Source: a virus
Reading direction: 5' to 3' (one strand)
Length of the DNA: 64,000 nucleotides
IMG/VR virus record: IMGVR_UViG_3300046780_000427
Location: 1 to 64,000 of that record
Shown here: piece by piece, positions 3,199 through 60,591 of the stretch
How the letters are laid out: the number at the start of each line of letters is the position of its first letter
Position numbering within the stretch: position 1 is the stretch's first letter
Notes under the pieces: generated by a model
What the model saw: only the letters and a program-made list of their open reading frames with translations
What the model was told of the DNA's origin: nothing
Databases searched by the model: none
Program-made: the position numbers and the translations under genes

Positions 3199-3471
3199 GT
3201 GGCCCTGGACCACCCCGTTGTACCCGTTGCCGGGGATCGCGCCCCGGGTGTCAATCAATGGTTGACAGCTAAGGCCCTGCCTGCGGTGAGGGGCCTGGTG
3301 ACCAAGGCCCGGGGGTGGCGGCTGCACAGGGCTGCTCCTGGGGCCGCGGGTGCCCTGGGCCTGTCCGTCGCTGTTGGGGGATTGGCGGGGCACCTGTGGG
3401 CCGGGACCGGCGCCTGGGTCGCCTTGGGGGCCGGGTCGCTGTTCCTGCTGCGCCTAGATTCTAGGATCTAG
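3199..3471 (+). CDS. small membrane protein
   Basis: Two hydrophobic segments; sits between terL and portal with an RBS. Confidence 0.6.
   Translation: MALDHPVVPVAGDRAPGVNQWLTAKALPAVRGLVTKARGWRLHRAAPGAAGALGLSVAVGGLAGHLWAGTGAWVALGAGSLFLLRLDSRI
3249..3267. promoter_or_regulatory. TGTCAA-N7-TTGACA palindrome, copy 1 (intragenic)
   Basis: tgtcaa tcaatgg ttgaca. Confidence 0.85.
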
Positions 3472-3473
3472 GC

Positions 3474-4886
3474 GTGGGTGTGTTCGCCGGGTCCAGGACG
3501 ATCACCGGCAAGCAGGTGCGGGAGGACTCGACCAGCCTCGGCGGCACCGGCGGGTCAACCGGGATGTGGGGGATCTCCTCCGCACTGGACCTGATCCCGA
3601 CGAGGCCCTTCCAGAAACTCGGGCCCACGGTCACCCAGGACACTGCGATGCGGCACTCCGCGGTGTGGGCGTGCCTGAGGTTGCGGGCGAACCTCCTCTC
3701 GACCCTGCCCCTGGATGCGTTCCGGAACGTCGGCCCCACGCAGGTGATGCTCGGGTACACCCCGCCGATCCTGGACCAGCCCGGCGGGCCGCTGCTGTCC
3801 TACCCCGGCGGGCCGAAGGTCGAGATTGAGGAATACCTGTACTCCTCGCAGGTGGACCTGGACCGGGCCGGGAACCACATCGCGGTGATCGCGGAGGTCA
3901 ACGGGTACGGGCAGCCGTCCTACCTGGAGGCTGCCCCCAGCACGGAATGCTCGGTGCTGGTCCGCGGGGGGAAGCTATGGAAATACCGGATCGCCGGCAA
4001 ACTGTATGACCCGGGGATGATCTGGCACGAACGGCAGTACACCTCCTCCGGCCTGTATGTGGGCCTGTCCCCCGTCGCTTATGCGGCGTGGGCGATCGGC
4101 GAATACTTGAACGTGCAGGAGTTCGCGACGAACTGGTTCGCCCAGGGCGGGGTGCCGAAGGCCCGGTTGAAAAACACGGCCAAGACGTTGAACACGATTG
4201 AGGCAGCGGTGGTCAAGGAGTCCTGGCGGGCCTCCATCTCCGCTGGGGAGCCGTTCGTGCACGGGTCCGATTGGGATTATGAGATGATCCAGGCCGACCA
4301 GGCGTCCCGGGACTGGCTGGACGCCAAAGCCGCCAGCATCCCGGACGTGGCCCGGTTTTTCGATGTGCCGGTGGACATGATCGACGGCACCCCCTCCGGT
4401 GCTAGGACCGGCCGCACTGACATGACGTATGCGAACATCGGCCAGCGGAACGCGCAACTTCTGGTCCTCAACCTGGGCCCGTCGATGGTCCGCCGGGAGA
4501 AAGCATGGTCCAGGCTCCTCCCGCAGCCGCAGTACTGCCAGTTCCGCCCCGATGCCCTGTTCCGCCTGGACCCCCTGGCCAAGGCCACGTTGCACCAGAT
4601 CCGCATCACCTCCCGCACCCTCGCCCCCTCGGAGGCCCGGGCGGACTGGAACCTGCCGCCGTTCACCGACGCGCAGTATGAGGAGTTCGACCACTTCTGG
4701 CCGGCGACGGGGAACATCGCCGGTGAGGGACCCGTCCCCGAGGGCGAGAGTGAGCCCGCGGACCCGACCGCTGACACCACCGACGTAGACCCCGAGCTGG
4801 CCGCTGCCGCTGCTGCCGTGCTCGGCCAGCACCGCCGCCACCTGGCCCTCAACGGGCACCACCTTAGGAAGGAACTGACCCGATGA
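3474..4886 (+). CDS. portal protein (HK97-like)
   Basis: SAVWACLRL, GLSPV, NWFAQGGVP, VARFFDVP, EARADWNLPP motifs and synteny. Confidence 0.92.
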   Translation: MGVFAGSRTITGKQVREDSTSLGGTGGSTGMWGISSALDLIPTRPFQKLGPTVTQDTAMRHSAVWACLRLRANLLSTLPLDAFRNVGPTQVMLGYTPPILDQPGGPLLSYPGGPKVEIEEYLYSSQVDLDRAGNHIAVIAEVNGYGQPSYLEAAPSTECSVLVRGGKLWKYRIAGKLYDPGMIWHERQYTSSGLYVGLSPVAYAAWAIGEYLNVQEFATNWFAQGGVPKARLKNTAKTLNTIEAAVVKESWRASISAGEPFVHGSDWDYEMIQADQASRDWLDAKAASIPDVARFFDVPVDMIDGTPSGARTGRTDMTYANIGQRNAQLLVLNLGPSMVRREKAWSRLLPQPQYCQFRPDALFRLDPLAKATLHQIRITSRTLAPSEARADWNLPPFTDAQYEEFDHFWPATGNIAGEGPVPEGESEPADPTADTTDVDPELAAAAAAVLGQHRRHLALNGHHLRKELTR

Positions 4887-6016
4887 CCATGAGCGCGGAA
4901 GGGACCCGCGCGGAGGCCCTGCACTTCCGCGCCGACGTTGACAACTCACCCTGGGACGCCGCGGCGGCCCTGGCCAAGTGCAAGACCGCGTCGGATTTCC
5001 GGTCGGTGTGCGCTGCGGAGAAGACCAACGACTCTGACCCGGCGACCGCCGCGCACTGGGCGCTGCCGCACCACTCCTCTCCCGGTGGGCCGCCGAACAA
5101 GTCCGGCACGTCCAAAGCCCTCGGCCGGGTGGATCAGACCGATGACATCGACCGGGGCAAGGCCCGGGCGCACCTGGAAGCGCACGCCGCGGCGTGGGGC
5201 GGCGGGCAGTCCTCCCAGCTCGCCCCCGAGCATGTGCGGGGGCTGCGCGCGGAACAGTTCGGCGGGCAGCGCAGGTTCCGCCCCAGCGACGGTGCCCGCC
5301 TGGCCACATTCGGCGGCCAGTTCCGCCATGAACTAGTCGTCGTCAACGGCAAGGAACTGGTGCAGCTCGACGGGTACGCATCAGTGGTTGAGCAGGAATA
5401 CGAGATGTGGGATATGTTCGGCCCCTACGGAGAGACCGTCGCCGGCGAGGCGTTCGACCGGACCCTAGGCTCCGCACCTGACGTGGCGTTCCTGACCAAC
5501 CACAAGGGCGTCACGATGGCCCGCTCCGGCGGGGCGAACCCGACCCTGACCCTAGACTCCGACCCCAGGGGCCTGCACGCGCAGGCACTGGTCAACCCGA
5601 AGCGCAACGACGTGCACGACCTCCTGCTGGCCATTGACGATGAGAACGTAACCGAGATGTCGTTCGCGTTCCGCATCGAGGACTGGGAGTGGGACGAGGA
5701 TTACATGCACGTCCGGATCCTGGAGGTCGATATCGACCGCGGGGACGTGTCGGCGGTGAACTTCGGCGCCAACCCGTACACGTCGATCGCCGCCAGGACG
5801 CAGGAGTTCATGGCGCTGCTGCCGCACCTGACCGAAGGCGCAGGCCGTGCCGCGCTGGACCGGCTCGCTGCCCGGTACGGGGTGCCCGCGGCGACGATCA
5901 CCCGGGCCACCACCGAGGCGGCCGCTGGGCGGCGCACAGGCCAGGACCAGGTGCCGGCGTTGCGCGGCGGCCGGTCGGTCAACCTGGTGGAAAGGTTGCA
6001 AGACCTGAACGGTTAG
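4883..6016 (+). CDS. prohead maturation protease (HK97 family) with extra N-terminal domain
   Basis: GYASV, E...GEAF, FLTNH, EMSFAF, DVSAVNFGANPYT. Confidence 0.88.
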   Translation: MTMSAEGTRAEALHFRADVDNSPWDAAAALAKCKTASDFRSVCAAEKTNDSDPATAAHWALPHHSSPGGPPNKSGTSKALGRVDQTDDIDRGKARAHLEAHAAAWGGGQSSQLAPEHVRGLRAEQFGGQRRFRPSDGARLATFGGQFRHELVVVNGKELVQLDGYASVVEQEYEMWDMFGPYGETVAGEAFDRTLGSAPDVAFLTNHKGVTMARSGGANPTLTLDSDPRGLHAQALVNPKRNDVHDLLLAIDDENVTEMSFAFRIEDWEWDEDYMHVRILEVDIDRGDVSAVNFGANPYTSIAARTQEFMALLPHLTEGAGRAALDRLAARYGVPAATITRATTEAAAGRRTGQDQVPALRGGRSVNLVERLQDLNG

Positions 6017-6019
6017 GCC

Positions 6020-6059
6020 CTCTGCGGCGCGTCCCTGGACGCGGTGGCGCGCCGCAGAG
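6020..6059 (+). terminator. GC-rich hairpin after protease gene
   Basis: ctctgcggcgcg...cgcgccgcagag inverted repeat; no U-tract. Confidence 0.4.
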
Positions 6060-6271
6060 CCGGGCGCGTCCTTGTGACTGTGCTGATCATAGATCGTGGT
6101 ACTGTCCGAACTACCTAGCCCCGTGACCGTGCCGGGGGCTTGGCAGGCGTGGGAGATCAGACCCGTTTAAGCGCCGGGCAATCAGGCCAAATGCATCACG
6201 CCGCCAAGCGGAGATCAGACCGGGACAGCGGCCAGCCAACCAACCGCCACAGGATCGCGGGAGCTGTCCCC

Positions 6272-8992: not shown

Positions 8993-9474
8993 GGGCGGCG
9001 TGGCGGGCGTACCGGCTGGCCACGTCGGCGACGGTCCTCTGGGCGTTCCTCATGCTCGGTGCCGCGCTCGATCAGGCCATCGCCCAGAAGGTCATGGCGT
9101 CGATCACGTCGGCGACGGCGTTTACGACGCTGACCACCGGGTTTAAGATCCGGCTGGATTCGGGCACGTCGACCGCGGCGGCGGCCGGGACCGAGATCAC
9201 CGGCTCGGGGTACACCGCTGGGGGGCAGACGTCGACAGCGCCGTTCGCGTCGACTGCGACCACGGCCAACCCGTCGATCGTGACGATCCCGCACACGGCG
9301 ATCCTCACCTGGACCAACGCTTCGGGCGGGAACTGGTCTATCCAGTCCCTTGACCTGTCCGACGGGGCGGCGGTGCGGACTATGTTCGGCAACTGGAACG
9401 GTGCCCCCGTGGTCGTGGCGAACGGAAACACGTTCCAAGTGGCGCTAGACGCGATCTCGGCGCAGGGCGGCTGA
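8989..9474 (+). CDS. putative virion structural protein
   Basis: GTEITGSGYTAGGQ-type beta-rich motif common in phage structural genes. Confidence 0.6.
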   Translation: MRAAWRAYRLATSATVLWAFLMLGAALDQAIAQKVMASITSATAFTTLTTGFKIRLDSGTSTAAAAGTEITGSGYTAGGQTSTAPFASTATTANPSIVTIPHTAILTWTNASGGNWSIQSLDLSDGAAVRTMFGNWNGAPVVVANGNTFQVALDAISAQGG

Positions 9475-10070: not shown

Positions 10071-12008
10071 ATGGCCGCCAGTGTCCGCAGCACCTCCACC
10101 TACGCCTCGGCGGCCAGTGACACGTCGGTAGCTGCCGTGCTGCCGTCCGGGTGGCAGCCCGGCGACGTCTGCTACGTCTTCGGCGAACTCCGCGCGGCCT
10201 CTGGCACGCTATCCACGTCCACCCCCGGGTGGACGACCCTGGTCGCGTCGTTCGCCTGCGCGGCGTCCACGTCGTCGTCGATGGCCCTGTTCCGCCGGGT
10301 GCTGCAGGCCGGGGACACGGCTGGGCCGACGGTCACCTGCACGTCGGGGCGGCTGTGCCTGGTCTCGGTAGCCGTGCAGGGCGCGGACAACGGCACGCCC
10401 GAGGACGGCGTGACCGTCCTGTCGAACAACGGCGGGGCTGGCGCGCAAACCTCCGTACCAGGGTCGGCGATCACCCCGAACGGGGCCGCGGACCTGCTGC
10501 TGTGCGGGTACGGCTGCGGCGACGCGGTCACCGCGAACACGGGCATCAGCTTCGGCACCCCTTCGGGGATGACGATCGCCGCGCAGACCGCGAGCACCCT
10601 GGCCGCGTCGACCGACGCCGGGCTGATGGTGGCCAGCCAGCAGCTGGCGTCGAGCGCGCAGGTGACGCCGGCGTCCAGCGCGGTGACTACGTCGCCTGCG
10701 AATAATGCGGTAGATGTCCAGTCGGTCACCCTGGTAGTCCTCCCGGCCGCTGCGTCAGCCACAAGCCCTGCGCCGTTGCCGCCGGTGATGTTCCCGCCGC
10801 TGTCGCGGATGTTCGGCCCTAACCCGCCGTTCGCCGTGGCGGCGCAGACGCCTGCCCCGGCCACGGTCAGCACCCAGCAGGGCACCGTCACGCTGGCCGC
10901 CGGCACGTCACTGACCGCGCCCGCCGTCCAGTTGGCGCCGGCGACCCTGCTGCCCGCTGCTGCCCTGTCAGCGCCTGCAGCCGCCGAACTGGCCCCGGCG
11001 ACCCTGGCCGCGCTCGCGTCGGTCACCGCGCCGGTCAGCACCGAACTGGTCACCGCGACGCTCGCCGTCCTGGCATCGCTCACATCCCCCGTGGTCGAGA
11101 TCCCGGCTGCGGTGACGCTGGGCGCCGGGTTCACGGTCACCAGTCCTGGGGGGCTGGCGTCCCCGGCGTCGCTGATCGTCGCGGGTGCTTTGGCCGCGTC
11201 TGGTGGCGGCCCGTCCGGTGCGACCCTGGCCGGCGGGTTCACCCTCACCGACACCGGCATCCTGCTCGCCCCCGCCACCCTGGCCGCTGCCTGGTCACTG
11301 ACCTCCCCCGTGGTGCAACTGGCCCCGGCGGCCCTGGCCGCTGCCTGGTCACTGACCGACACGGCTGTGCTGCTCGCTCCCGCGTCCCTGATCGCTACTG
11401 CGGCCCTTGGGGCACCGGCCGTGATCCAGCAGGCCATCGCGTCCCTGACAGCCGCAGTGTCGCTCACCGCACTGCTGAGCAGGCAACTAGCCCCCGCTAC
11501 CCTGGGCGCCGGGTTCACCGTGACCGACGCAGTAGTGCAGCTCGCCGTCGCGACCTTGACCGCTGCTGCGTCCCTCGCCGGGGGAACCGGGGCGGCGGGT
11601 GCCGCCACCTTGACCGCGGCCTGGACTGTCAACACGCCGTTGACAGTCCAGGCCGCGCCAGCGGTCCTGGCTGCCCTGGCCTCCCTCGGCATCCCCGCGT
11701 CCCGCGTGGCCGCCGTAGCGGTCCTGGCCCCGGCCTGGGCCATGACCGGGCAGGGGAAGCAGATCGCCCCCGCCACGCTGCTGCTCGCAGTGTCGCTCAC
11801 CGCTGCGGCCGGCGGCCCCGTTACAGTGATCTATGGAACCGCGACGATAGGCGCGGGACCGCTTCCCGGCGCAGTGCCAGGCGCCGGGCCAGCCCCCGGG
11901 CAACCAGGGGCCCTGGTCACCGGCGCAGCACCGGGGAGCGGCCGCACCATCGCTGTGACTGCCGGCGCAGGTTCCTCCGATGTGGTTATCCCCGGAGGAC
12001 CGCTGTGA
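10071..12008 (+). CDS. Ala/Thr/Pro-rich repeat protein (possible head fibre or decoration)
   Basis: Globular N-terminal domain followed by many roughly 20-aa repeats such as LAPATLAAAWSLT. Confidence 0.65.
   Translation: MAASVRSTSTYASAASDTSVAAVLPSGWQPGDVCYVFGELRAASGTLSTSTPGWTTLVASFACAASTSSSMALFRRVLQAGDTAGPTVTCTSGRLCLVSVAVQGADNGTPEDGVTVLSNNGGAGAQTSVPGSAITPNGAADLLLCGYGCGDAVTANTGISFGTPSGMTIAAQTASTLAASTDAGLMVASQQLASSAQVTPASSAVTTSPANNAVDVQSVTLVVLPAAASATSPAPLPPVMFPPLSRMFGPNPPFAVAAQTPAPATVSTQQGTVTLAAGTSLTAPAVQLAPATLLPAAALSAPAAAELAPATLAALASVTAPVSTELVTATLAVLASLTSPVVEIPAAVTLGAGFTVTSPGGLASPASLIVAGALAASGGGPSGATLAGGFTLTDTGILLAPATLAAAWSLTSPVVQLAPAALAAAWSLTDTAVLLAPASLIATAALGAPAVIQQAIASLTAAVSLTALLSRQLAPATLGAGFTVTDAVVQLAVATLTAAASLAGGTGAAGAATLTAAWTVNTPLTVQAAPAVLAALASLGIPASRVAAVAVLAPAWAMTGQGKQIAPATLLLAVSLTAAAGGPVTVIYGTATIGAGPLPGAVPGAGPAPGQPGALVTGAAPGSGRTIAVTAGAGSSDVVIPGGPL
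11615..11657. promoter_or_regulatory. TGTCAA-N7-TTGACA palindrome, copy 2, with 18-bp perfect arms (intragenic)
   Basis: cgcggcctggactgtcaa cacgccg ttgacagtccaggccgcg. Confidence 0.88.
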
Positions 12009-14756: not shown

Positions 14757-14762
14757 CCACTC

Positions 14763-15242
14763 ATGCCGCCCGCACCACTCACCCCGACGAACAGGTATTT
14801 CCCGCCAGCGAAGCGGAAGATTTACTGGCTGACCACCTGCTCCAACTACAACGCCCCCACCAGGGGTGAGCTGAACGCGGGCACCGACCTGTCCGCGGAG
14901 ATCGCCGCCGTCGCCGGGTTCTCCCTCACGGACAACCCGGTGGACACCCCCGACATGGGGTCCCGGTTCACCTCCCAGGTCCCAGGGCGGCAGACCGCCG
15001 CCGGGTCGTCGCTGACGATCTACTGCGACCAGGTGGGCAACGACGCCCGGGCGCTGCTCCTCAACGGGGTCGCCGGGTTCGTGGTGTGCCTGTGGGAAGG
15101 CGACACCACCGGGTTTTTCATGGACGTGTTCCCTGCCCGCGTCGATTCACAGGCGATGGACACCACGGTGGATGACCCCGGCCAGTGCGTGTTCTCCTTC
15201 ACCTGCTCCCGGGTGCCCGCGATCAGGGTCCTGGTCCCCTAG
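14763..15242 (+). CDS. major tail protein
   Basis: APTRGELNAGTDLS, VDTPDMGSRFTSQVPGR, MDVFP; typical of actinophage tail tube proteins. Confidence 0.8.
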   Translation: MPPAPLTPTNRYFPPAKRKIYWLTTCSNYNAPTRGELNAGTDLSAEIAAVAGFSLTDNPVDTPDMGSRFTSQVPGRQTAAGSSLTIYCDQVGNDARALLLNGVAGFVVCLWEGDTTGFFMDVFPARVDSQAMDTTVDDPGQCVFSFTCSRVPAIRVLVP

Positions 15243-15243
15243 G

Positions 15244-15777
15244 GTGCCCGCACCGTCGCGGACGGCCTCAGCGTTCGGGCTCCACTCCCTGTCGGGGGTG
15301 GAGCTGCGCACGGTCGCGCGGCGGTTGCGGGAGATGGATGAGCCGAGGACGGCGCTGCTGTTCCGCCGGGAGCTGCGGGCGGCCGCGGCACCGATGGTCC
15401 CCGCGGTGCGCAGGTCCATTCAGGCGATCCCGGCGAAGACAGGCTCGGTGCGGCGGCAGGGCGGGTCGCTGCGGGCCTCGATGCAGCGGGCCACCAAGTT
15501 GTACGTCCGCACGTCCGGCCGGCTGACCGGGGTTGTGATCATGGTCAACGGCCAGTTGATGCCCGCGGGGATGCGGTCCCTCCCCGCGTATGAGGAGGGC
15601 ACCAAACCACGGTGGCGGCATCCGGTGTTCGGTCACACCGACAGGTGGGTTGCGCAGGCGCCGCACCCGTATTTCTACAACACGGTACGGCCTATGGGCG
15701 TGGTTGCCCGGGTGGCCGTAGGGCGGGCGATGTCCCGTGTCAGCGAGGACATCACCGGAGGAAGGAGGGCGTTTTAG
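15244..15777 (+). CDS. HK97 gp10-like neck protein
   Basis: Basic protein with WRHPVFG...WVAQ...PYF; start uncertain. Confidence 0.55.
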   Translation: MPAPSRTASAFGLHSLSGVELRTVARRLREMDEPRTALLFRRELRAAAAPMVPAVRRSIQAIPAKTGSVRRQGGSLRASMQRATKLYVRTSGRLTGVVIMVNGQLMPAGMRSLPAYEEGTKPRWRHPVFGHTDRWVAQAPHPYFYNTVRPMGVVARVAVGRAMSRVSEDITGGRRAF

Positions 15778-16248
15778 ATGGGGCTGCTTGGAAGAGATGA
15801 GATCCTGACCCACACCGATCTGCCATTCGAGGACGTGTACGTTCCGGAGTGGTCAGGGTCGGTGCGGGTGCGGGGCCTGTCCGGGAAAGACCGGGACGCC
15901 TACGAGGCATCCACGGTGATCATGCGCACCGGCAAGGGCGGCCGGCTGGAGCAGGGACGGGACCTGGACAACCTGCGGGCGAAACTGATTGTCCGCTGCC
16001 TGGTCGATGACAACGGCGACCGGCTGTTCCACGACGGCGAATACGACACGGTAGGTGCCCTGTCCGGGGCGATCCTGGCCCGCCTGTGGGACACCGCATC
16101 CAAACTGTCCGGCCTCGGGGATGAGGACCTGGAGGAGCTGGTGCGGGATTTCGGGTCAACCCCTGGCGGGGGTTCGTCTACTCCCTCGCCCTCGCCCTCG
16201 GGTGCCCCGTCGCCGAACTCCTCACCCGGATCTCCTCCCGGGAGCTGA
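15778..16248 (+). CDS. tail assembly chaperone (gpG)
   Basis: VPEWSGSVRVRGLSG..RD, LVDDNGDRLF, KLSGL; precedes the tape measure gene. Confidence 0.85.
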   Translation: MGLLGRDEILTHTDLPFEDVYVPEWSGSVRVRGLSGKDRDAYEASTVIMRTGKGGRLEQGRDLDNLRAKLIVRCLVDDNGDRLFHDGEYDTVGALSGAILARLWDTASKLSGLGDEDLEELVRDFGSTPGGGSSTPSPSPSGAPSPNSSPGSPPGS

Positions 16249-16385
16249 CCGGCTGGTACGCCTACCACACCTGGGTCCAGGAGCAGGAAGCCGCCGAGGA
16301 GAAGCAGAAACACCAGGGGTCGGGGGGGCTGGGAGGCCCGCCGGTGGCAGCACCAGTGAACATGCGGGGCGCAGGCCCCGCCTAG
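16146..16385 (+). CDS. tail assembly chaperone -1 frameshift extension (gpGT)
   Basis: G GAT TTC slippery site; the -1 frame reads FVYSLALALGCPVAELLTRISSRELTGWYAY to TAG at 16383. Confidence 0.75.
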   Translation, partial: GFRVNPWRGFVYSLALALGCPVAELLTRISSRELTGWYAYHTWVQEQEAAEEKQKHQGSGGLGGPPVAAPVNMRGAGPA

Positions 16386-16404
16386 AGGACGGAAGGGAGG
16401 CCCG

Positions 16405-19400
16405 GTGACGTTCGCCCGCGTGATCTATGACGTGGTAGCCCGTGACGGGGCTTCCCGGACGTTCCGTCACATGGGTGATGAGGCCGGTTACGCCGAGGGG
16501 AGGGTGGCCCGGTTCGGGCGGGCGTTCGCCGCGGTCGGCATCGGCATCGGGATCGCCGGGGTGGCGATCGCCGCCGAGGCGGTCCGGATGGGGACCACGT
16601 TCCAGGCGGAGATGACCCGCATCCAAACCCAGGCCGGCGCGTCCGCGGGTGCGGTGAAGCAGTTGCAGGGTGAGGTCCTGCGCCTGGCGCAGTCCCACGC
16701 GCAGCAAGGCCCCAACGAGCTGGCCATGGCCCTCTACCACCTCAAATCCGTGGGCCTGGACAACGTTCACGCGATGCGGGCCCTGCGGGTCGCCTCAGAC
16801 CTGGCGGCGGTCGGCGGGTCGAACCTGGAGGATACCACCAGTGCCCTCGCCGGCGCGTGGCGGTCCGGGATCAAGGGCGCCCAGTCGTTCGGCAAGACCG
16901 CGGCGACGGTGAACGCGATCATCGGCGCCGGGAACATGCGCATGACCGACTTCATCGCGTCCCTGTCTTCCGGGATCCTCCCGGCAGCCCGCACGTTCCA
17001 CGTCTCCCTGTCGTCGGTGGGGTCTGCGCTGGCACTGATGACTGACGAGGGCATTCCCGCCGAGGTCGCCGCCACGAGGCTGAGGATGACCCTGTCGCTG
17101 ATAGGTGCCCCGTCCGCTAAGGCCGCCGGGGCGCTGTCCACCATCGGCCTGCGCGCGGACGACCTGGCCAAGAAGCTGATGCAACCGGGGCCGTCCGGCG
17201 GCCTCGTCGGTGCGATCGCACTGCTGAAACAACACCTGGACGCCTCCGGGCAGTCCGCGGTCCAGCAGGCGCAGACGATCGCGCACGCCTTCGGCGGCGG
17301 CCGGTCCTCCTCCGCGATCGAGACCCTGCTGAACAACCTCGGCGTGCTGGAGAAGAAGCAGACACAGATCAACAACACCACCGGCAAATACGGGGCCGCG
17401 GTCGTCGCGCAACGCAAAACCGCTGAGGCACAGTTCCACCGGCTCTCCTCCATCATCGAGGCGGCCGGTGTGCGGATCGGGCTGGCCCTGTTGCCGCCGG
17501 TGACCGCGTTCGTGTCGTTCATCGTCAACCGGGCCCTCCCGGCGGTGGGCACGTTCGGGTCCCGGGTCGGGCAGGTGTTCAACGCGATCATCCCGGTGGG
17601 GGCGATCAAACGGGACTGGCAGGACCTGATGCAGTTCCTGGGCCTGGCCAAGCCCAAGCCCGTGCACCTGGTCACCGGGGACCTGCTGCACCTGCCCCGC
17701 CCCGCGCCGCTGTATGCGGGTGACCTCCTGCACGCCAGGCCGTCACCGATGCTGGACCTGATCCACCCGTTGCCGAAGACAGCCGGGGACCAGCTCGTGG
17801 CCCCGCTGAAGGCGGGCATCATCGCGGCCCTGTCCGGATCCGGGTTCGGGATGGCCCTGGGTCATGCCCTGGGGACGGCATTCGGGTGGCTGGGGCAGCA
17901 TTCGGCCGTGTTCATCGGCGGCCTGGTCAACACCCTGGCGCACCTGGACTGGGTGAGCATCGGCAAAGCGGTCGGCGGGAACGCCCTCGGGTTCGCGATC
18001 GGGTTCATCTCCAACCTGGGCGCGGACCTGTTCTCCCCGTCGTTCTGGGAGCACCACTGGTGGGACCTGATCGTGGCGGTCCTGTCCGTGGGGCTGGTGG
18101 GGAAGTTCATCGGCCCCGTGGAGAAGATCATCAGCCATGTGCCGGTGCTGCGACTGTTCTCCCCGTTTCTCAAGGGCATCCAGAAAGTCGGCACCCCAAT
18201 TTTTGACACCGTCTACTCGGCGGTCAAGGGCATCGGGCGGGCGTTTATCAAGGGGTTCGGGGACGTGTTCCCCGGGACGTTCGCCCGGCTGAGCAAATGG
18301 CTGGACCTCCTGCCGACCCGGATCGGGGTGTGGGCCATCCGGATCTACGACCTCGGCCGGCGGGCCCTGGTCGGGCTGGGGAACGGCATCCTCCGCGGCG
18401 CAGAGGGCCTAGGCAAGATCATCGGGACGATTATCAAGCGGCTAATTGACCCGTTCCGGCCTGCCGGCCTGTGGCTGGTCGAGTCCGGGATCAACCTGGT
18501 CAAGGGGCTCCTCGGCGGGATCCGCAGGTACATGGCCGGGATCGCCTCCTGGGTGAAGGGGAACATCGTTAACCCGATCGTCCACTGGGTCACGCATTTC
18601 TTCGGGATCAGCTCACCGTCTAAGGTCATGTTCGGGCTCGGCGGGCACATCATGACCGGGCTGCTGCACGGGATCATGTCCGGCGGCCGGAACCTCGGCG
18701 GGATGGTCCGCAAGGTGTTCGGGTCGATCCCGTCCGCGCTGGGTCACCTGGTCGAGAAGGGGATGGTCTCGATCTCCTCCCTCCCCGGCCGGGCCCTGCG
18801 CGCCCTCGGCGGGCTCGGGTCGGGGCTGCTCGGCGGCATCGCGAACCTGCTCGGTTTCAGCGGCGGGTCCGGGGTGGCGCAGTGGGGCTCCACCGTGGAG
18901 AAGGTCCTGGGGATGCTCGGCCTCCCTAAGTCCTACACGGGGATGTGGCTGCGGCAGATCGCCACAGAATCCGGCGGCAACAGATTCGCCGTCAACTTGA
19001 CCGACTCAAACGCCGCTGCCGGCCACCCGTCCATGGGCGTCCTTCAGACGATCATGTCCACGTTCCTGGCCTACTCCGGGCCGTTCCGGTCCCTGGGCGT
19101 TTTTAACGGATTGGCCGATATTTTCGCTGGGATCAACTATGCCCTCCACAGGTACGGCAGGGCCGGGATGCTCGGCGTCATCGGGCAGGGGCACGGTTAC
19201 TGGCAGGGCGGGCCGATCACCGAGCCGATCACAGGCATCGGGCGCTCCGGGCGGTCCTACAGCTTCGGGGAGAACGGGTTGCAGGAGTGGGTCACCCGCG
19301 GCCGCCCCGGCGGCCGGGGTGTCAATGGCGGGTTGACAGGCGGGCCGCTGATCCACGCGGACCAACTGGTGGTGCAGGACGCGACGGACGCGGAGCTGGT

Positions 19401-19455
19401 GGCCCGCAAGCTGGCCTTCCGGGTCATGGCCGCGAGCATGGGAGGGAACGGGTAG
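16405..19455 (+). CDS. tape measure protein with C-terminal lytic transglycosylase-like domain
   Basis: TP901-type core, amphipathic repeats, FGISSPSKV, QIATESGGN...GVLQTIMSTF. Confidence 0.9.
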   Translation: MTFARVIYDVVARDGASRTFRHMGDEAGYAEGRVARFGRAFAAVGIGIGIAGVAIAAEAVRMGTTFQAEMTRIQTQAGASAGAVKQLQGEVLRLAQSHAQQGPNELAMALYHLKSVGLDNVHAMRALRVASDLAAVGGSNLEDTTSALAGAWRSGIKGAQSFGKTAATVNAIIGAGNMRMTDFIASLSSGILPAARTFHVSLSSVGSALALMTDEGIPAEVAATRLRMTLSLIGAPSAKAAGALSTIGLRADDLAKKLMQPGPSGGLVGAIALLKQHLDASGQSAVQQAQTIAHAFGGGRSSSAIETLLNNLGVLEKKQTQINNTTGKYGAAVVAQRKTAEAQFHRLSSIIEAAGVRIGLALLPPVTAFVSFIVNRALPAVGTFGSRVGQVFNAIIPVGAIKRDWQDLMQFLGLAKPKPVHLVTGDLLHLPRPAPLYAGDLLHARPSPMLDLIHPLPKTAGDQLVAPLKAGIIAALSGSGFGMALGHALGTAFGWLGQHSAVFIGGLVNTLAHLDWVSIGKAVGGNALGFAIGFISNLGADLFSPSFWEHHWWDLIVAVLSVGLVGKFIGPVEKIISHVPVLRLFSPFLKGIQKVGTPIFDTVYSAVKGIGRAFIKGFGDVFPGTFARLSKWLDLLPTRIGVWAIRIYDLGRRALVGLGNGILRGAEGLGKIIGTIIKRLIDPFRPAGLWLVESGINLVKGLLGGIRRYMAGIASWVKGNIVNPIVHWVTHFFGISSPSKVMFGLGGHIMTGLLHGIMSGGRNLGGMVRKVFGSIPSALGHLVEKGMVSISSLPGRALRALGGLGSGLLGGIANLLGFSGGSGVAQWGSTVEKVLGMLGLPKSYTGMWLRQIATESGGNRFAVNLTDSNAAAGHPSMGVLQTIMSTFLAYSGPFRSLGVFNGLADIFAGINYALHRYGRAGMLGVIGQGHGYWQGGPITEPITGIGRSGRSYSFGENGLQEWVTRGRPGGRGVNGGLTGGPLIHADQLVVQDATDAELVARKLAFRVMAASMGGNG
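19320..19338. promoter_or_regulatory. TGTCAA-N7-TTGACA palindrome, copy 3 (intragenic)
   Basis: tgtcaa tggcggg ttgaca. Confidence 0.85.
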
Positions 19456-20349
19456 ATGGCCCTCACCGGCATGACCCTGACCGACCCGTCCTCCGGGCTG
19501 ACCGTGGTCATCTACCCGCGGGACGGGGTCTCCTCCGCGGGGATTGACGCGTCTGCGCCGGCGCGGGCGCAGGTGGAGCCGAGGGTGGGTGCCCGCGGCG
19601 GGGTTGATACGACTGCCTTCCTGGATGAGGGCGTGCTGTCCCTGTCGCTGCTGCTGTACCCGGGGCAGTTCACGGCGCAGACCCCGGAGGGGTTCCTTGA
19701 TGAGATCGCCCCGCTCCTGGACCCCAGGCTGCGGCCGGTGCTGACCGTCACCAACGATGCCTGGCCGGGGAAGCGGCAGGTGACCCTCCGGTTCGACTCC
19801 ATCGCCAAACCGTGGACGGACCCGACGCAGTGGCCGGTGCAGGTCAACTGGACCGTGCCGGGGGCGTGCTGGGAGGACGCCCTGGTGACCTCGGCGGTGA
19901 TCAACGCGTTCGCCACCGACCAGACCGGCACCGGCCTGGTCTTTGACGTGCCGGGCCTGGCGGTGACCTCCGCGGGGATCACGTTCCCGCCGACGAACAC
20001 CCCCGCCCCATCGCAGGTGATCAACCCGGGCACCGCGGCTGCGCAGTGGACTGGGCTGCTGTACGGGCCGTGCACCGGCCCGAAGCTGGCGAATGACATC
20101 GCCGGCCTGACCTTGGAGTTCACCGATGCGCTGCAACTGGGGCAGGGGTCCTACCTGGCGCTGGATTCCCAGGCGCAGTCGGCCCTGGTGAACGGCGACC
20201 CGCTCTCGGATGTGACCGGGCTGCTGAACTTCGGTTCCTCCTCCTGGTGGCAGATGAACCCGGGCCTCAACGTGATCCGGTACTACCCGACCGACGCGGA
20301 CGACGGGGCGGTTGCCAGCTTGTCGTTCCGCGGCGCCTACCCGCTCTAG
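19456..20349 (+). CDS. distal tail protein (Dit-like)
   Basis: Follows the tape measure gene; INPGT...GP..GP...WWQMNPGLNVIRY. Confidence 0.75.
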   Translation: MALTGMTLTDPSSGLTVVIYPRDGVSSAGIDASAPARAQVEPRVGARGGVDTTAFLDEGVLSLSLLLYPGQFTAQTPEGFLDEIAPLLDPRLRPVLTVTNDAWPGKRQVTLRFDSIAKPWTDPTQWPVQVNWTVPGACWEDALVTSAVINAFATDQTGTGLVFDVPGLAVTSAGITFPPTNTPAPSQVINPGTAAAQWTGLLYGPCTGPKLANDIAGLTLEFTDALQLGQGSYLALDSQAQSALVNGDPLSDVTGLLNFGSSSWWQMNPGLNVIRYYPTDADDGAVASLSFRGAYPL

Positions 20350-20361
20350 GAGGGCCTGGCC

Positions 20362-21327
20362 ATGACGCTGCATGTCCCGGTGTGGTTGCAGCCCGCGGGC
20401 GGCGACTCTGCCATCAACTACTCCGCGCAGGAGGCCCGGCAGTACAACCGGGCGCTGCTGACCAGCTCGACCGGCGTCGGGGGGCAGCAGGGTGTCCTGA
20501 CCTTCTCTAACCTCAACGTCGTCCAACGGGGCGCGGGGGCGAACCTGTCCGTTGATGTGCCGGCCGGGCTGGGGTTCGTTGTCGGGGATGACACCACCAA
20601 CCAGGGCACTTACCAGGTTTGGAACGACGCCACGGTCAACGTGCCGACGCCGAACCCGCCGGGGTCAGGCACCCAGGTTCACCGCCTGGTGTTGCAGGTG
20701 CAGGACAAGCTGAACAACGGTGTCTGGGCCGGCTACCAGGCCGCTTTCACGGTCCTGGCTGACACCGGCAGCGGCACCCCGGCGGAGCCGAACTCCGCGA
20801 TCACCCTCGCGCTGATCTCCATCAGCTCGGTGCAGTCGTCCGTGCAGAACGCGCAGATCACCGACTACCGGCAGCGCGTCGGGCCTATCGGGGTGCTCAA
20901 GTCGTCTGACACCTCGAATGCGGGCACGTCCCTGGCTGATGACCCGCACCTGCAGCTCCTCAACCTCCAGGCCAACACCAAGTACTCCTTCGATGCGCAG
21001 ATCATGTACTCCGGCGGCACCGGCGGCAACGAGTCTGACCTGACGTTCAAGTTCCGCACGGCCGGGATCTCCTACTCCCACCTCAACCGGCTGAACTACA
21101 ACCTGTCCGGGGCGCTGGTGTGGAACACGCAGGCGATCGGGGACACGATCACCAACTGCCAGACGATCGGCACCACTAACCCGGACTCGCCGTTGCTGAT
21201 CGGCGGGGATGTGGAGACCGGCAACGCGCCCTGCTGGGCGATCATGCAATTCGCCCAGACCAACTCCTCCGGGACGTTCACCTGGCTGCGCCAGGGGTCC
21301 CGGATCACGATGCGCCCGATGGGCTAA
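20362..21327 (+). CDS. minor tail protein
   Basis: NLSVDVPAG, RLVLQVQD, LALISI...ITDYR pattern. Confidence 0.7.
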   Translation: MTLHVPVWLQPAGGDSAINYSAQEARQYNRALLTSSTGVGGQQGVLTFSNLNVVQRGAGANLSVDVPAGLGFVVGDDTTNQGTYQVWNDATVNVPTPNPPGSGTQVHRLVLQVQDKLNNGVWAGYQAAFTVLADTGSGTPAEPNSAITLALISISSVQSSVQNAQITDYRQRVGPIGVLKSSDTSNAGTSLADDPHLQLLNLQANTKYSFDAQIMYSGGTGGNESDLTFKFRTAGISYSHLNRLNYNLSGALVWNTQAIGDTITNCQTIGTTNPDSPLLIGGDVETGNAPCWAIMQFAQTNSSGTFTWLRQGSRITMRPMG

Positions 21328-21338
21328 CAGGAGGACCT

Positions 21339-42269: not shown

Positions 42270-42668
42270 TCACCTACGTCTGACAGAACCGTGTGACCTG
42301 CCGGTACTTCCCCCTCCGGGGGTCCTCGGGTAGCATGTGGCGTGAAGGGTGTTCCTTCCAAGGATGGGTAGCGAGACCTCCCCGGAACTGGTGGTGTTCC
42401 CCCCTCTCTCCAGCGGGCCGCCCGGTCCCGGGGGTACTCAGCCCCCCGGCACCGAGGCGGCCCGCACAGTTTCCCGCCCTGGGCAGCCCGGTCTAACAGG
42501 TCTAAACTCGGCCTCACCCTGTAACGACATAGGCACGCGTTACGGTGGGCTTGGAGAGAGCATTACCCGTGGTTAGGGGACTGGCCACGTCTTGACCGAC
42601 CACAGGACCTTGGAGGGCTGAGTATGCGTCACCTGCCGCATCCACCAAGGACCAGCCCGGCACCTGCC

Positions 42669-42693
42669 GCCTGTCAACCGAGTATTGACAGGC
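42669..42693. promoter_or_regulatory. TGTCAA-N7-TTGACA palindrome, copy 5 (9-bp arms), before rightward arm
   Basis: gcctgtcaa ccgagta ttgacaggc. Confidence 0.88.
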
Positions 42694-42718
42694 ACCCGCA
42701 GCAGCCGGGCTGTCCAGC

Positions 42719-43198
42719 ATGACCACCACCACAACCCGCCCCGGGCCCGCAGGATCGCTCCCGGGCCCGCGGGGACTACCAGCCAGCCAGGCTGAGGCCA
42801 TCACGATCATCCTCGGCCTGTCCGACTCCCTCGATCAGATGCGCGCCTACGCCGGCGCGCTCTACCGCGCCGGCGTGCTCGAGGGGAGACGCCAGGCAGC
42901 CGGGTACTGCCCCGGCCACCGGGAACAGATCGCCGAAGCGTTCCTCGCGGGTGAACGCCAGGCCCGCGCCGATGACCTGCCCGCGTTTGATGCCGGGTTC
43001 GCCGCATGCTGGCAGCGGTTCGCGGTGGAGATCGCCACCAGGTCAGCGCCGCCGCGCTCCGGCAGGTGGCGGCGCCCGGTGTGCGGGGACCTGACCTGCG
43101 GCCGGGAAGCATGCCAGCCGAGACCCCGGCGGAAACGGGAACCGCACGACCAGGCAGCCATGATCACCCGTGCCCGCGAGTCCTGGGGGCTGACATGA
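42719..43198 (+). CDS. hypothetical protein
   Basis: First rightward ORF; ATGA overlap with the helicase. Confidence 0.6.
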   Translation: MTTTTTRPGPAGSLPGPRGLPASQAEAITIILGLSDSLDQMRAYAGALYRAGVLEGRRQAAGYCPGHREQIAEAFLAGERQARADDLPAFDAGFAACWQRFAVEIATRSAPPRSGRWRRPVCGDLTCGREACQPRPRRKREPHDQAAMITRARESWGLT

Positions 43199-47060: not shown

Positions 47061-47083
47061 CCTGTCAACACCGTGTTGACAGG
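47061..47083. promoter_or_regulatory. TGTCAA-N7-TTGACA palindrome, copy 6
   Basis: cctgtcaa caccgtg ttgacagg, just upstream of the 47106 gene. Confidence 0.88.
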
Positions 47084-47105: not shown

Positions 47106-47972
47106 ATGCGATTCCGTGCAACCATCACCGCCGCGGCCGCCGTGCTGGCCGTGGCCATCACCGGCGCCGGGTATGCCTCCGGGCACGCCCAGCCTGGCCC
47201 GTCCCGGGTCACCTGCACCAGCGCCGGTGGGATCACCACCGGTGGCAAGGCTAGCGCACCCGGCAACGGGTATGCCGTCTGGACGGCGCTGCCTGCGCCG
47301 CTGCCCGCGTGCCAGGAGCAGGCGTGGGTCAAGGTGTTCGCTGCCAACGGGCTGTCCGCATCCAGTGGAATGCTCAAGTCCACCTCGGCGAACCTGGGCA
47401 GGGTCACTGAGGCGCAGGTCCCGCAGGGCCTCCCGCTGGCCCGGGCGAGGCTGGAGGTCCAGTTCACCGGCAACCCGGGCAGCCGCCTGTGCAAGGTGTT
47501 CTTCCCGGCCGGGGATGGCACCTACCACCCGTGCACGAACACCAAGACCGCGGAGCTGACCGTCAAGCGGGTCGCGGTGACCTGGTTCCACATCTGCCTC
47601 GCCCTGAATCACAGCCTGTGCGCTACGGCTAACGGCGTCGGCCATAACCTGTCGGTAGTGTCCTCCGGTTACAACAAGTGGCAGGCCATCCCGGACGGGT
47701 CCGGCGGGAAGATCATGTGGCAGAACGGCTCCGGCAACTGCATGGAGGTCACATCCTCCGAGGCCGTGACGAACACGCTCGGCGGCTGCGGCGGTGCCGC
47801 TTCTGAGGACTGGACGGTCGGCGGGTCCGGCAACGTGACATTCAACAACTCCGGCACGGACCTTTACATGGGCACCAACGGCGCGCAGGCCGGCAAGCTG
47901 GTCTACGCCCACCCGCCGCACACCGGGTTTGACCGGGGGTGGGTCACGTTCTCCTGCTGCGCGAAGGGCTAA
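47106..47972 (+). CDS. secreted protein with ricin-B-lectin-like C-terminal domain
   Basis: Signal peptide MRFRATITAAAAVLAVA; SLCATA...NKW, NGSGNCMEV...C...EDW, NNSGTDLYM repeats. Confidence 0.6.
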   Translation: MRFRATITAAAAVLAVAITGAGYASGHAQPGPSRVTCTSAGGITTGGKASAPGNGYAVWTALPAPLPACQEQAWVKVFAANGLSASSGMLKSTSANLGRVTEAQVPQGLPLARARLEVQFTGNPGSRLCKVFFPAGDGTYHPCTNTKTAELTVKRVAVTWFHICLALNHSLCATANGVGHNLSVVSSGYNKWQAIPDGSGGKIMWQNGSGNCMEVTSSEAVTNTLGGCGGAASEDWTVGGSGNVTFNNSGTDLYMGTNGAQAGKLVYAHPPHTGFDRGWVTFSCCAKG

Positions 47973-52383: not shown

Positions 52384-52632
52384 ATGACAACTTCCCCCGC
52401 ACCGATGACCGCCCCGGCCGGGCCGGCCTCCCAGCGGCATGTCGAAACGTCGATCACCCTCGCCAAGGGTGAGACCCTGACCGTCGCCCACCTGATCCAG
52501 CTCACCACCGACGCCGCCGCCGTGGGCCTGCCCGTGGAGGCGACTGTGCGGGTCGAGAACCGCATCAGCGGCAAACCTATGCGGCTCACCGTGGCAGGCG
52601 AGGCGCCGGTCACAGTGTCAAGGCATGATTGA
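52384..52632 (+). CDS. hypothetical protein
   Basis: Short ORF whose stop codon lies within palindrome copy 7. Confidence 0.5.
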   Translation: MTTSPAPMTAPAGPASQRHVETSITLAKGETLTVAHLIQLTTDAAAVGLPVEATVRVENRISGKPMRLTVAGEAPVTVSRHD

Positions 52633-52634
52633 CA
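52616..52634. promoter_or_regulatory. TGTCAA-N7-TTGACA palindrome, copy 7, abutting start of the DNA-modification operon
   Basis: tgtcaa ggcatga ttgaca g gtg. Confidence 0.88.
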
Positions 52635-52635: not shown

Positions 52636-53205
52636 GTGACCGACACCCAGCCTGAGGCAGCGTTCCGGCTAGGCCCCCAGCAGTTCGACCCCGCTATACC
52701 TGTTGAGTCGATCAGCGAGCACCCCCGCAACCCGAACGAGGGCGACATCGGGGCCATCCATGAGTCGATGGGGCAGCACGGGTTCGTCGGGGCGATCATG
52801 GTTCAGCGGTCCACCGGGTATGTCCTGGACGGCAACCACACCTACCGGACTGCTGTCGCGAAGGGTGCCCTGACCCTGCCCGGGTTCTGGCTTGACGTGG
52901 ATGATGATGAGGCCCTGCGGATCCTCATGGATATCAACCACACCGCCCGCCTCGGCCGCGACGACCTGGCCCTGGCCTCCGCGCTCCTGCTGGATTTGCG
53001 CGGCCGCGGGGACCTGCCCGCGTCCTACTCCGATGACGACCTGCAGCAGATGCTTGATGACCTGTCCGGGCCGGCGGCGCCGGATGAGTTCCCCGAGTAC
53101 GGCGACGACATCAGCACCGAGCACGAATGCCCCCGCTGCGGGTACGCCTTTAGCGGTGGCACTAAGCGGCCTGTGGGCGCTGAGGACGCCGGCGCGGGCC
53201 CATGA
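52636..53205 (+). CDS. ParB/Srx N-terminal-like domain protein with C-terminal CPxCG Zn ribbon
   Basis: HPRNPN.GD, SMGQHGF, VLDGNH, HECPRCGY. Confidence 0.8.
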   Translation: MTDTQPEAAFRLGPQQFDPAIPVESISEHPRNPNEGDIGAIHESMGQHGFVGAIMVQRSTGYVLDGNHTYRTAVAKGALTLPGFWLDVDDDEALRILMDINHTARLGRDDLALASALLLDLRGRGDLPASYSDDDLQQMLDDLSGPAAPDEFPEYGDDISTEHECPRCGYAFSGGTKRPVGAEDAGAGP

Positions 53206-58557: not shown

Positions 58558-58576
58558 TGTCAACAAACTGTTGACA
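58558..58576. promoter_or_regulatory. TGTCAA-N7-TTGACA palindrome, copy 8
   Basis: tgtcaa caaactg ttgaca. Confidence 0.88.
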
Positions 58577-58600: not shown

Positions 58601-58644
58601 CCCCTGCTATTCTGAACACGTAAGCAGGACCCGGAGAGAGGGAC
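58601..58644 (+). promoter_or_regulatory. conserved cassette leader copy 5
   Basis: cccctgcTATTCTgaacacgtaagc...ggagagagggac. Confidence 0.8.
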
Positions 58645-58648
58645 CCAG

Positions 58649-59741: not shown

Positions 59742-59760
59742 TGTCAATGGGATGTTGACA
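59742..59760. promoter_or_regulatory. TGTCAA-N7-TTGACA palindrome, copy 9
   Basis: tgtcaa tgggatg ttgaca. Confidence 0.88.
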
Positions 59761-59783: not shown

Positions 59784-59828
59784 CCCCTGCAATGATTGAC
59801 ATGTAAACAGCACCCTGGAGAGAGGGAC
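59784..59828 (+). promoter_or_regulatory. conserved cassette leader copy 6
   Basis: cccctgcAATGATtgacatgtaaac...ggagagagggac. Confidence 0.8.
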
Positions 59829-59830
59829 CC

Positions 59831-60064
59831 ATGTTCACTAGCGCTGACGGGACATGGCGGGTGCGGCCCGTCGAGCTGGACCAGCCGCTCCGCCCCTGTG
59901 CGATGGCGTCCCTGCCCGGTGCCCCCGCCGAGCACCTGTGCGTCACCCGGCACGGGTTCGTCGTCGCGAACGTTCCGGCCCCGCGGCTGCCCTCGGGGCT
60001 CCTGGACCTGGCGGCCCTTGCCGCCGTGCTCCCGTTCCCCCTGGCTGAGCTGAGGCCCGCATGA
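59831..60064 (+). CDS. hypothetical protein
   Basis: Leader-driven ORF. Confidence 0.65.
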   Translation: MFTSADGTWRVRPVELDQPLRPCAMASLPGAPAEHLCVTRHGFVVANVPAPRLPSGLLDLAALAAVLPFPLAELRPA

Positions 60065-60387
60065 AAGGCAACGTCTGGGACGACGGGCTCGGCGGGGTCC
60101 GGCTCCTGTCCGGGCAGTGCGCGACGTGCATCTACCGGCCTGGCAACCCGATGCGCCTGGAGCCCGGCCGCCTTCAGGACATCACCGCCTCGGCCCGCGA
60201 AGCGGACGGGTATGTGATCTGCCACGACACCCTGTCCTATGGGGAGCACCCGGAGACCGGGGAGGCCCTGTGCCGGGGGTTCTACGACGCCTATCAAACC
60301 CGGTTCACCCAAGTAGGTGACCGGCTGTCCTGGTGGCGGGAGATCCCGCCTCCGGGCCTTACCCAAGGGGAAGAGTCCCGTGACTAG
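60061..60387 (+). CDS. Cys-containing hypothetical protein
   Basis: QCATCIYRP...ICHDT...ALCRGF. Confidence 0.7.
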   Translation: MKGNVWDDGLGGVRLLSGQCATCIYRPGNPMRLEPGRLQDITASAREADGYVICHDTLSYGEHPETGEALCRGFYDAYQTRFTQVGDRLSWWREIPPPGLTQGEESRD

Positions 60388-60535
60388 ATCAACTGCCCGC
60401 CGCGTCCGCCGCAACCTGTACCTGGCACAGCGGACCCTCGGTGACCTGGACGCGGCCTCCCGCGGCCGGCTCCCCCGCCGCCTGGTGCGCCGGCGGCTGA
60501 CACGGTCGCTCATGCGGGCCTTGTCCGGGCGCTAG
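60380..60535 (+). CDS. small Arg-rich protein
   Basis: LYLAQRTLGD..A...GRL.RRL.RR. Confidence 0.55.
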   Translation: MTRSTARRVRRNLYLAQRTLGDLDAASRGRLPRRLVRRRLTRSLMRALSGR

Positions 60536-60572
60536 GCCCTGTCCCTGGGACCTGGCAGGCTAGGCGGTTAGG

Positions 60573-60591
60573 TGTCAAGGATTCATTGACA
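60573..60591. promoter_or_regulatory. TGTCAA-N7-TTGACA palindrome, copy 10
   Basis: tgtcaa ggattca ttgaca. Confidence 0.88.

Follow-up and report, generated by a model that had tools for sequence, protein, structure and literature searches.

Dispersed TGTCAA-N7-TTGACA palindromes in a virus genome, probable operators of ClpC2/RelI type with a phage helix-turn-helix protein as candidate binder

We analysed a window of 64,000 nucleotides, the first 64,000 of the 72,058 bases of IMG/VR record IMGVR_UViG_3300046780_000427 (completeness estimated at 79%; lineage label G000), over which ten copies of the palindrome TGTCAA-N7-TTGACA are dispersed and in which a gene at 60673-61140 encodes a small protein ending in a helix-turn-helix (HTH). 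The window has a G+C content of 70% and, judged from its gene families, appears to belong to a siphovirus of an actinobacterium-like host. Pfam and PHROG scans identified as late genes those for portal, S78 protease, tail tube, tape measure and an Rv2525c-like lysin; a leftward block carries RecT, YqaJ, HNH, glycosyl- and methyltransferases and a ParB-like protein of 486 amino acids, and a rightward block carries an AAA_25 helicase-like protein, DUF932, a small ParB-like protein, a C5 methylase, the HTH protein, DUF6221 and an Ltp-like superinfection-exclusion protein. The same scans found no integrase in the window or among the gene models of the 63-72 kb part of the record.

Ten palindromes and their conservation in a related genome

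An earlier note on this DNA, made from the letters alone, had listed ten copies of the palindrome with invariant hexamers and a free 7-nucleotide spacer, and exact matching returned these ten places, as well as the two plus-strand TGTCAA (44590 and 48247) which, it had said, are the only ones without a partner; TTGACA stands alone on the plus strand nine times. On both strands together TGTCAA occurs 31 times against 10.86 expected, with 20 of the 31 inside palindromes, and none of 100 dinucleotide-preserving shuffles contained a single copy of the palindrome. The shorter arms GTCAA and TTGAC pair ten times at a spacer of 7 and never at spacers of 3-6 or 8-12, the expectation from the arm counts (13 and 21) being 0.004 copies (Poisson P 1.7e-31). 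When up to 2 mismatches were allowed, just one extra place appeared in the window, at 8897; the 64-72 kb part of the record holds no exact copy and one with 1 mismatch, at 64146, which reads V-K-x-x-L-T. The dispersal over the whole genome that the note had described holds for the ten sites but not for the window as a whole genome, given the 72,058 bases and 79% completeness of the record.

The four intragenic copies read V-N-x-x-L-T with TTG and ACA, as the note had also stated. TTG makes up 5.1% of the leucine codons and ACA 4.7% of the threonine codons, and AAT, used in two of the copies, 7.2% of those for asparagine. The note had named a codon-shuffled genome as the comparison to make, and we ran 1000 rounds of synonymous codon shuffling over 90 gene models with the 4 intergenic sites left unshuffled. 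Four sites were obtained in 982 rounds and five in the other 18; the four are the unshuffled intergenic ones, and the 6 genic sites were therefore regenerated 0.018 times on average.

The one viral lineage near enough for comparison (G001; 58,733 bases, 85% complete) is 62% identical to the window in TerL, 72% in portal and 71% in capsid, and contains 10 sites with at most 1 mismatch, the reversed-pattern control giving 0. Seven places are common to both genomes, so that the conservation in related phages which the note had proposed to look for is found, and three are specific to each lineage. Site 1 (3249-3267) lies in a small gene between TerL and portal (3199-3471), reads V-N-Q-W-L-T and is syntenic with G001 2848 (V-K-N-W-L-T). 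Site 2 (11627-11645; V-N-T-P-L-T) is within the repeat-protein gene at 10071-12008 and syntenic with G001 11100, and its flanks add 10 of 10 pairs to the palindrome. Site 3 (19320-19338; V-N-G-G-L-T) is near the 3' end of the tape-measure gene at 16405-19455, with its counterpart at G001 18727. Site 4 (35050-35068; V-N-H-G-L-T) falls inside the large ParB-like gene on the minus strand, and neither the site nor its gene was found in the 58,733 bases of the 85% complete G001 record.

The remaining sites stand mostly at gene starts. Site 5 (42672-42690) is in a divergent control region 28 nt before the ATG of the gene at 42719, the leader of the first rightward gene, and G001 42213 has the same geometry. 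Site 6 (47063-47081) lies 24 nt before an ATG at 47106 preceded by a ribosome-binding site (RBS), because of which we regard it as probably intergenic, and it is roughly syntenic with G001 47148, upstream of the DUF932 gene. The TGA in site 7 (52616-52634) terminates a small gene, and 1 nt separates the site from the GTG that starts the gene for the small ParB-like protein (52636-53205); the corresponding junction in G001 has its site at 52798. Site 8 (58558-58576; syntenic with G001 57762), site 9 (59742-59760) and site 10 (60573-60591) lie 26, 25 and 36 nt upstream of three successive promoter-like cassettes, and site 10 ends 81 nt before the ATG of the HTH gene.

Site 5 is also spanned by an upstream open reading frame (ORF) of 32 codons (42624-42722), with a GGAGGG RBS, whose end and the start of gene 42719 overlap as ATGA; its equivalent in G001 has 29 codons and the same overlap, and the retention of this arrangement suggests translational coupling.

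The changes seen in G001 indicate what is being conserved. In every site one half is perfect and the other differs by a single base, which is that of position 1 in eight cases and of position 3 in the remaining two; all 10 variant positions break the dyad, with none compensated. Across both genomes each of the 40 half-sites (40 of 40) keeps G at position 2, C at 4 and A at 5 and 6, and in the window the outer base is T in 20 of 20. Uncompensated changes confined to one half point to two half-sites read independently on duplex DNA, and they argue against a hairpin. The intragenic sites of G001 additionally use the other open frame, (C/R)-Q-x-x-(L/I)-D, and twice the TGA inside TTGAC doubles as a stop codon; the DNA is therefore conserved, not the peptide. 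The imperfect half is upstream in 5 sites and downstream in 5, with no consistent orientation. That the sites are not random, are maintained as DNA sequence and in part hold their places in a diverged relative bears out the DNA-level selection and the binding sites for a dimeric protein proposed in the earlier note, and we conclude that the palindrome array is real and functional.

Spacing is a further feature of the array. The gaps between successive G001 sites (8252, 7627, 9539, 4630, 4397, 4920, 4935, 5650 and 4964) are far more even than chance, the smallest being 4397 in 58.7 kb (P 5e-6), and they form two classes, those in the late genes measuring about 8 kb and the others about 5 kb. 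The window is not even overall (P 0.34), because its last three sites are 1184 and 831 apart. Window position 37956 has the look of a remnant, now decayed, of the lineage-specific site G001 37293. A dispersal that is kept although sites turn over at non-homologous places suggests selection on genome coverage rather than on single promoters.

Five more distant records (G004-G008; 56-79 kb, capsid 50-65% identical) have 0 sites and no comparable dyad, and their gene content overlaps too little for the binder to be sought by subtraction. Other repeats were noticed there. G008 carries a different dyad, CCGTCC-N5-GGACGG, in 5-8 copies (14759-21984 and 74748) that cluster within about 7 kb of its late region (P 6e-10 given arm counts), and G006 has 13 copies of CGCAGCTGCG spread over 64 kb where the arm counts predict 1.8, an excess that could be compositional.

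A family of viral HTH proteins that co-occurs with the dyad

The gene at 60673-61140 (plus strand) encodes 155 amino acids, with an N-terminal Cys-rich part, helices at residues 81-102 and 104-130 and a C-terminal HTH. Eight homologues are full-length and many cover the C-terminal 75 residues; the family counts 10,213 representative clusters at E 0.001 or better. In an AlphaFold 2 model, the predicted local distance difference test (pLDDT) is 82-95 in 10-residue blocks over residues 81-155, where two long helices and the terminal HTH are predicted. Prediction with two copies of the protein gave a homodimer score of 0.67 against 0.01 for the best control, the mark used being reached by 20 of 30 proteins solved as one-chain pairs and by 1 of 23 solved as single chains; we used our own alignment for this prediction, and these calibration counts accordingly hold roughly. 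Runs agree in at least 94% of the contacts, partner pLDDT is at least 83, and the predicted interface spans residues 75-143, the two copies pairing through the long helices.

We then picked viral loci solely by the recognition-helix peptide [TS]RQ[AG]AQQR, which gave 65 loci with 865 kb of sequence, and counted GTCAA-N7-TTGAC in them. The dyad occurs 66 times at this spacer versus 0-9 times at any one of the other spacers between 0 and 12. Dereplication left 50 lineages, of which 36 have a site and 31 have one between -200 and +60 nt of the HTH stretch, a zone holding 33 of the 50 sites in 3.7% of the sequence. The dyad is often right at the start codon of the HTH gene or at its 3' end; in the L201 group it ends 1 nt before the start codon, and in loci L234, L245 and L246 it is doubled. 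The outer base of the half-site across these loci is T in 44, C in 20 and A in 2 of 66, followed by GTCAA and never then by A. The aromatic residue after QQR showed no covariation with this outer base. In G005 and G006, both of which have 0 sites, the recognition helix of the HTH homologue is changed; a search beside these homologues for altered dyads found none.

Sites were also counted in ten other virus records that encode an HTH homologue: nine of them, 17.7-62 kb long, carry 1-3 each, and the tenth, of 97 kb, carries 6; the unusual part of the window is therefore the ten dispersed copies, several of them intragenic. A scan of viral sequences with a 14-base pattern gave, among the matches listed, one match per contig only. 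Homologues are also present in records classed as provirus, and in locus L192 the HTH gene directly follows an integrase. The L201-type loci, viral records of about 20 kb of which 9 are near-identical, are themselves prophage-like, with TerL, portal, a protease-capsid fusion, lysin and HNH, and their 79-aa HTH gene is divergent from the packaging operon.

The earlier note had named four candidate binders. The HTH protein among them has gained from the co-occurrence, the predicted dimer and the family profile described below, and the ribbon-helix-helix ('RHH') protein at 35858 found no support. Look-ups in a protein atlas for the proteins of 35574-35861 and 42719-43198 returned low-confidence models and no usable match.

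Relation to ClpC2 and RelI and the weighing of candidate binders

A family profile built from 17 homologues of the 60673 protein was compared with solved structures and matched RelI (PDB 9sdc, E 1e-10) and the N-terminal dimer domain of ClpC2 (PDB 8ada residues 4-72, E 0.0033). ClpC2 (Rv2667 family) is described as a dimeric autorepressor whose operator, CGTCAAC-n5-GTTGACG, was confirmed by electrophoretic mobility shift assay and competition, lies 1-2 nt upstream of a probably leaderless ORF, is sometimes doubled and is reported for several genera of actinobacteria (Taylor et al. 2023, Commun Biol 6:301, PMC10030653). In that work the dimerisation mutant R57A was impaired in operator binding, and the authors assign the DNA contact to a C-terminal helix (R185/R189); in the portions of the article available here, phages are mentioned in another context only and the HTH never (PMC10030653). 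RelI (Rv2664) is reported to be the HTH antitoxin of the RelS-RelI pair, and an HHpred link between RelI and the HTH region of ClpC2 has been described (PMC13284704).

The likeness to this operator extends over several features. Core and spacing, nGTCAA-N7-TTGACn, are the same in 10 of 10 window sites; the binder is dimeric in ClpC2 and predicted to be so in the phage; the site abuts an ORF start at 52616 and in L201-type loci as the ClpC2 operator does; and two consecutive operators occur in some genomes, as in L234, L245 and L246 (PMC10030653). The inner C or G of the ClpC2 form is present at 4 of 10 left and 7 of 10 right positions in the window. The two systems differ in the outer base, which in the window is T and not C, in the Clp_N-like ligand-binding C-terminal domain of ClpC2, without which the phage protein is made, and in the ten dispersed copies, several intragenic, compared with one or two copies at a promoter (PMC10030653). 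No Clp_N match was found with the 155-aa protein at E up to 1, nor a Clp_N domain among 12 members scanned from the best 150 representatives of the HTH family. RelI is the best solved relative of the family; it differs in that its DNA site is not known, with no inverted repeats upstream according to what its authors state in the parts of their article available here (PMC13284704), and in that no toxin partner is evident beside the phage HTH gene.

The dyad co-occurs with an HTH family that sequence comparison relates to ClpC2 and RelI. Since the palindromes have the shape of the ClpC2 operator and the phage encodes a relative of ClpC2, they are most likely docking sites of the phage HTH protein, and we consider it probable that the ten copies are operators of ClpC2/RelI type multiplied across the genome, with the product of 60673-61140 as candidate binder. 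The array is best explained as a known operator form, that of ClpC2, multiplied and dispersed across a phage genome.

Several results weigh against this interpretation. The ClpC2 match is weak (E 0.0033) and was obtained on a crystal fragment that ends inside the HTH, and the C-terminal domain with the R185/R189 DNA contact of ClpC2 is missing from the phage protein. Fold matches are weak too (Fis, Z 5.6; HetR, 5.2; NtrC DNA-binding domain, 4.1), and no row of a Foldseek search with the model of the 60673 protein reaches E 0.001; its weak HTH matches include 7r6r, a Cluster A2 repressor:DNA complex (E 3.0). In 14 of the 50 lineages with the same recognition helix the retrieved locus has 0 sites. 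Site 60573 ends 81 nt before the HTH ATG with a cassette and an RBS in between, unlike the close apposition of the ClpC2 operator. An HTH homologue was not found in the 58,733 bases of G001, a record of 85% completeness in which 1 kb follows the last site; being incomplete, it neither confirms nor refutes the phage protein as binder.

The same absence could favour the host's own ClpC2, a repressor that responds to stress and antibiotics, as the protein that binds the sites, instead of the phage protein or along with it, in a silencing and induction switch or by titration. The shared core and spacing and the reports of the operator in several actinobacterial genera (PMC10030653) are compatible with this, as is the outer C of the ClpC2 form in 20 of 66 viral half-sites and in 6 of 20 in G001. 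We nevertheless hold it to be unlikely: the dyad adjoins the virus's own HTH gene in 31 of 50 lineages, which argues for a cognate viral binder and against host ClpC2, the outer base is T and not C in every window half-site, and neither portal nor capsid alignments found a prophage relative in bacterial genomes, for which reason no host could be assigned. We infer that the phage protein, not host ClpC2, binds the sites.

The earlier note had also considered dispersed parS-like centromeres, and the large ParB-family protein (34117-35577, minus strand, 486 aa) would then bind the palindromes as centromeres or as KorB-like loading sites. It matches phrog_6218, 'ParB-like partition protein', at E 1.9e-38 and aligns with Noc over residues 49-202, with GFRRRAA at the CTP-binding box opposite Noc's GERRWRA; one site lies inside its own gene, and the sites are dispersed, evenly so in G001. 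Yet ParA is absent from 77 Pfam and 42 PHROG queries of the window and from 14 gene models in 63-72 kb of this 79% complete record, and G001 keeps 10 sites with no 486-aa homologue found in its 58.7 kb (85% complete). Its homologues at E 1e-3 or better number 3, including two ParB/RepB/Spo0J proteins from Nocardia, and a related viral locus was not found, a search with an FtsK-like protein of the record likewise giving none. The dyad co-occurs with a different family, that of the HTH proteins, which accounts for it, and to our knowledge the sites of ParB-family proteins are contiguous palindromes lacking a free 7-nt spacer. This parS proposal did not hold up, and we rate it as very improbable. 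Site 35050 falls in the ParB stretch that aligns just after the HTH of Noc.

Two further readings concern the DNA or RNA itself. Hairpins of RNA or single-strand DNA (terminators, processing sites or cruciforms) might be suspected from the flanks, which pair at 4.45 of 10 positions versus 2.90 in the background (0 of 20,000 resamples reach 4.45), with 9-10 extra pairs at two sites, but a shared ggc|TGTCAA preference accounts for this raised complementarity. In G001 the 10 variant positions all lack a compensating change, the stem is invariant and the loop free, and no T-tract terminator was called at the 7 sites in 42-62 kb; for these reasons we rejected the hairpins, which are hardly credible. 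TTGACA is likewise the consensus -35 hexamer, and some members of the HTH family give sub-threshold Sigma70_r4 matches, a hint of likeness to the domain that reads this box; the halves could on this account be -35 boxes of back-to-back sigma-70-type promoters. A hexamer nAnnnT 16-19 nt downstream of a half-site was found in 0 of 20 orientations in the window and in 1 of 20 in G001 against a background of 8.4%, and a consensus promoter scan of 42-62 kb called none at the sites. With -10 hexamers no commoner than background and no promoter called, this reading was rejected as well, and we attach practically no credence to it.

Proposed action, comparable repeats and neighbouring features

Three of the sites precede promoter-like cassettes of a common build. 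Cassette 1 (58603-58648, plus strand) consists of CCCTGC, a -10-like hexamer, a conserved leader and the RBS GGAGAGAGG; further copies of about 45 nt, all likewise with an ATG, stand ahead of successive gene groups at 59786-59830, 60628-60672 and 61190-61233. The -10-like hexamer has a TGn-like prefix, and the leader reads (G/T)(A/G)ACA(C/T)GTAA(G/A)C. Cassette 3 precedes the HTH gene, the fourth cassette (61190) has no palindrome upstream, and G001 has a matching cassette after its site 57762.

On the reading that the phage HTH protein is the binder, its two long helices would form a symmetric dimer in which each HTH recognises one (T/C)GTCAA half-site, the 7-nt spacer going unread. The 1-3 sites at the regulator's own gene in most viruses suggest autoregulation, and in this lineage the operator would have been multiplied to about ten dispersed copies. 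At the three copies upstream of the tandem early cassettes, the dimer might autoregulate cassette 3 and co-regulate cassettes 1 and 2; at 52616, where the site abuts the start of the operon of the small ParB-like protein and methylase, control could be by promoter occlusion; and the copy in the leader of the replication operon and those inside late and other genes may act as roadblocks or insulators. Binding would in sum repress or insulate transcription, with roadblocks at the intragenic sites, and 'stoperator-like' and 'genome-organising', terms used in the earlier note, are possible descriptions of its effect away from promoters.

A bolder version would have the sites form a genome-wide switch read by both the phage's minimal ClpC2-like dimer and host ClpC2, with stress derepressing the whole phage genome at once. 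Host ClpC2 leaves the DNA on binding natural products that target ClpC1, and antibiotic or proteotoxic stress in soil would be the trigger; conversely, the phage protein might shut down or hijack the host clpC2 response. We think this decidedly doubtful. If it were true, the operator specificity of ClpC2 would lie in the overlooked N-terminal HTH and not in the C-terminal domain.

The nearest genome pattern known to us from the literature is that of the Cluster O mycobacteriophages, which carry 34 dyads of 17 bp, TGTTCGG-N3-CCGAACA, for which their authors infer a dimeric binder with a role other than transcription initiation (PMC4351075). Invariant inverted arms around a variable centre and copies throughout the genome are common to both, about a third of the Cluster O repeats lie inside genes and they are denser towards the right end, to which the placement of the window's sites can be likened, and these phages are described as lacking integrase and parAB and as having a protein with a ParB-like domain (PMC4351075). 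They differ in sequence, in geometry (7-3-7 versus 6-7-6 here), in number (34 versus 10) and in that no binder was identified in the description available here, whereas a candidate family is now linked to the window's dyad by co-occurrence (PMC4351075). The stoperators of Cluster A mycobacteriophages are similarly many repressor sites dispersed over the genome, late genes included, but they are asymmetric and oriented with transcription (PMC4351075), whereas the window's sites are perfect dyads and the imperfect half in G001 faces either way equally often. AotM, a TetR-type regulator of M. bovis, has identical TGTCAA/TTGACA half-sites in its operator (PMC11351531); its spacer is 2 nt and not 7 and its protein family is unrelated, and the likeness is probably coincidental. 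Literature on the conserved inverted repeats of phiC31 and on the hexamers in connection with phage yielded nothing relevant beyond AotM, and in the open-access literature searched we found no paper linking a ClpC2-type operator to phages.

The interpretation of the palindromes as operators of the phage HTH protein would offer a concrete candidate binder for a long-unexplained feature of actinophages, the dispersed dyad repeats exemplified by Cluster O. The ClpC2/RelI regulators of actinobacteria, and with them a defined operator, would be tied to small viral HTH proteins that form a very large family. The same interpretation suggests that ClpC2 may owe its DNA specificity to the N-terminal HTH region, and it makes regulatory cross-talk conceivable between phages and an antibiotic-response gene of the host.

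As to the surroundings of this soil phage, nucleotide searches of a phage collection found no close isolated phage, and tblastn with the portal against the same collection gave matches of at most 27% identity. A metagenome scan returned one 6-kb contig, with a portal 51% identical and without any site. Contigs of 4 sequencing runs equal the window sequence at the phage pieces and were thus uninformative on variation, ends or nicks. Beyond the window, the right arm of the record carries two DUF6221 genes and, at 65492-67432, the FtsK/SpoIIIE-like protein of 646 aa mentioned above (phrog_24831, phrog_1358), followed by a weak FHA-like ORF. Among the head-tail genes, an opposite-strand ORF at 9072-9431 (minus strand) has a coding-like GC-frame pattern and a counterpart of 69% identity in G001; this ORF may still be an artefact of the simple gene caller. 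In soil runs, a 63-kb contig with a depth of 52 is about 88% identical to window 47190-47860, inside the gene at 47106-47972, where the phage's own contigs have a depth of 4-6, and this gene may be shared with the host or with another abundant element.

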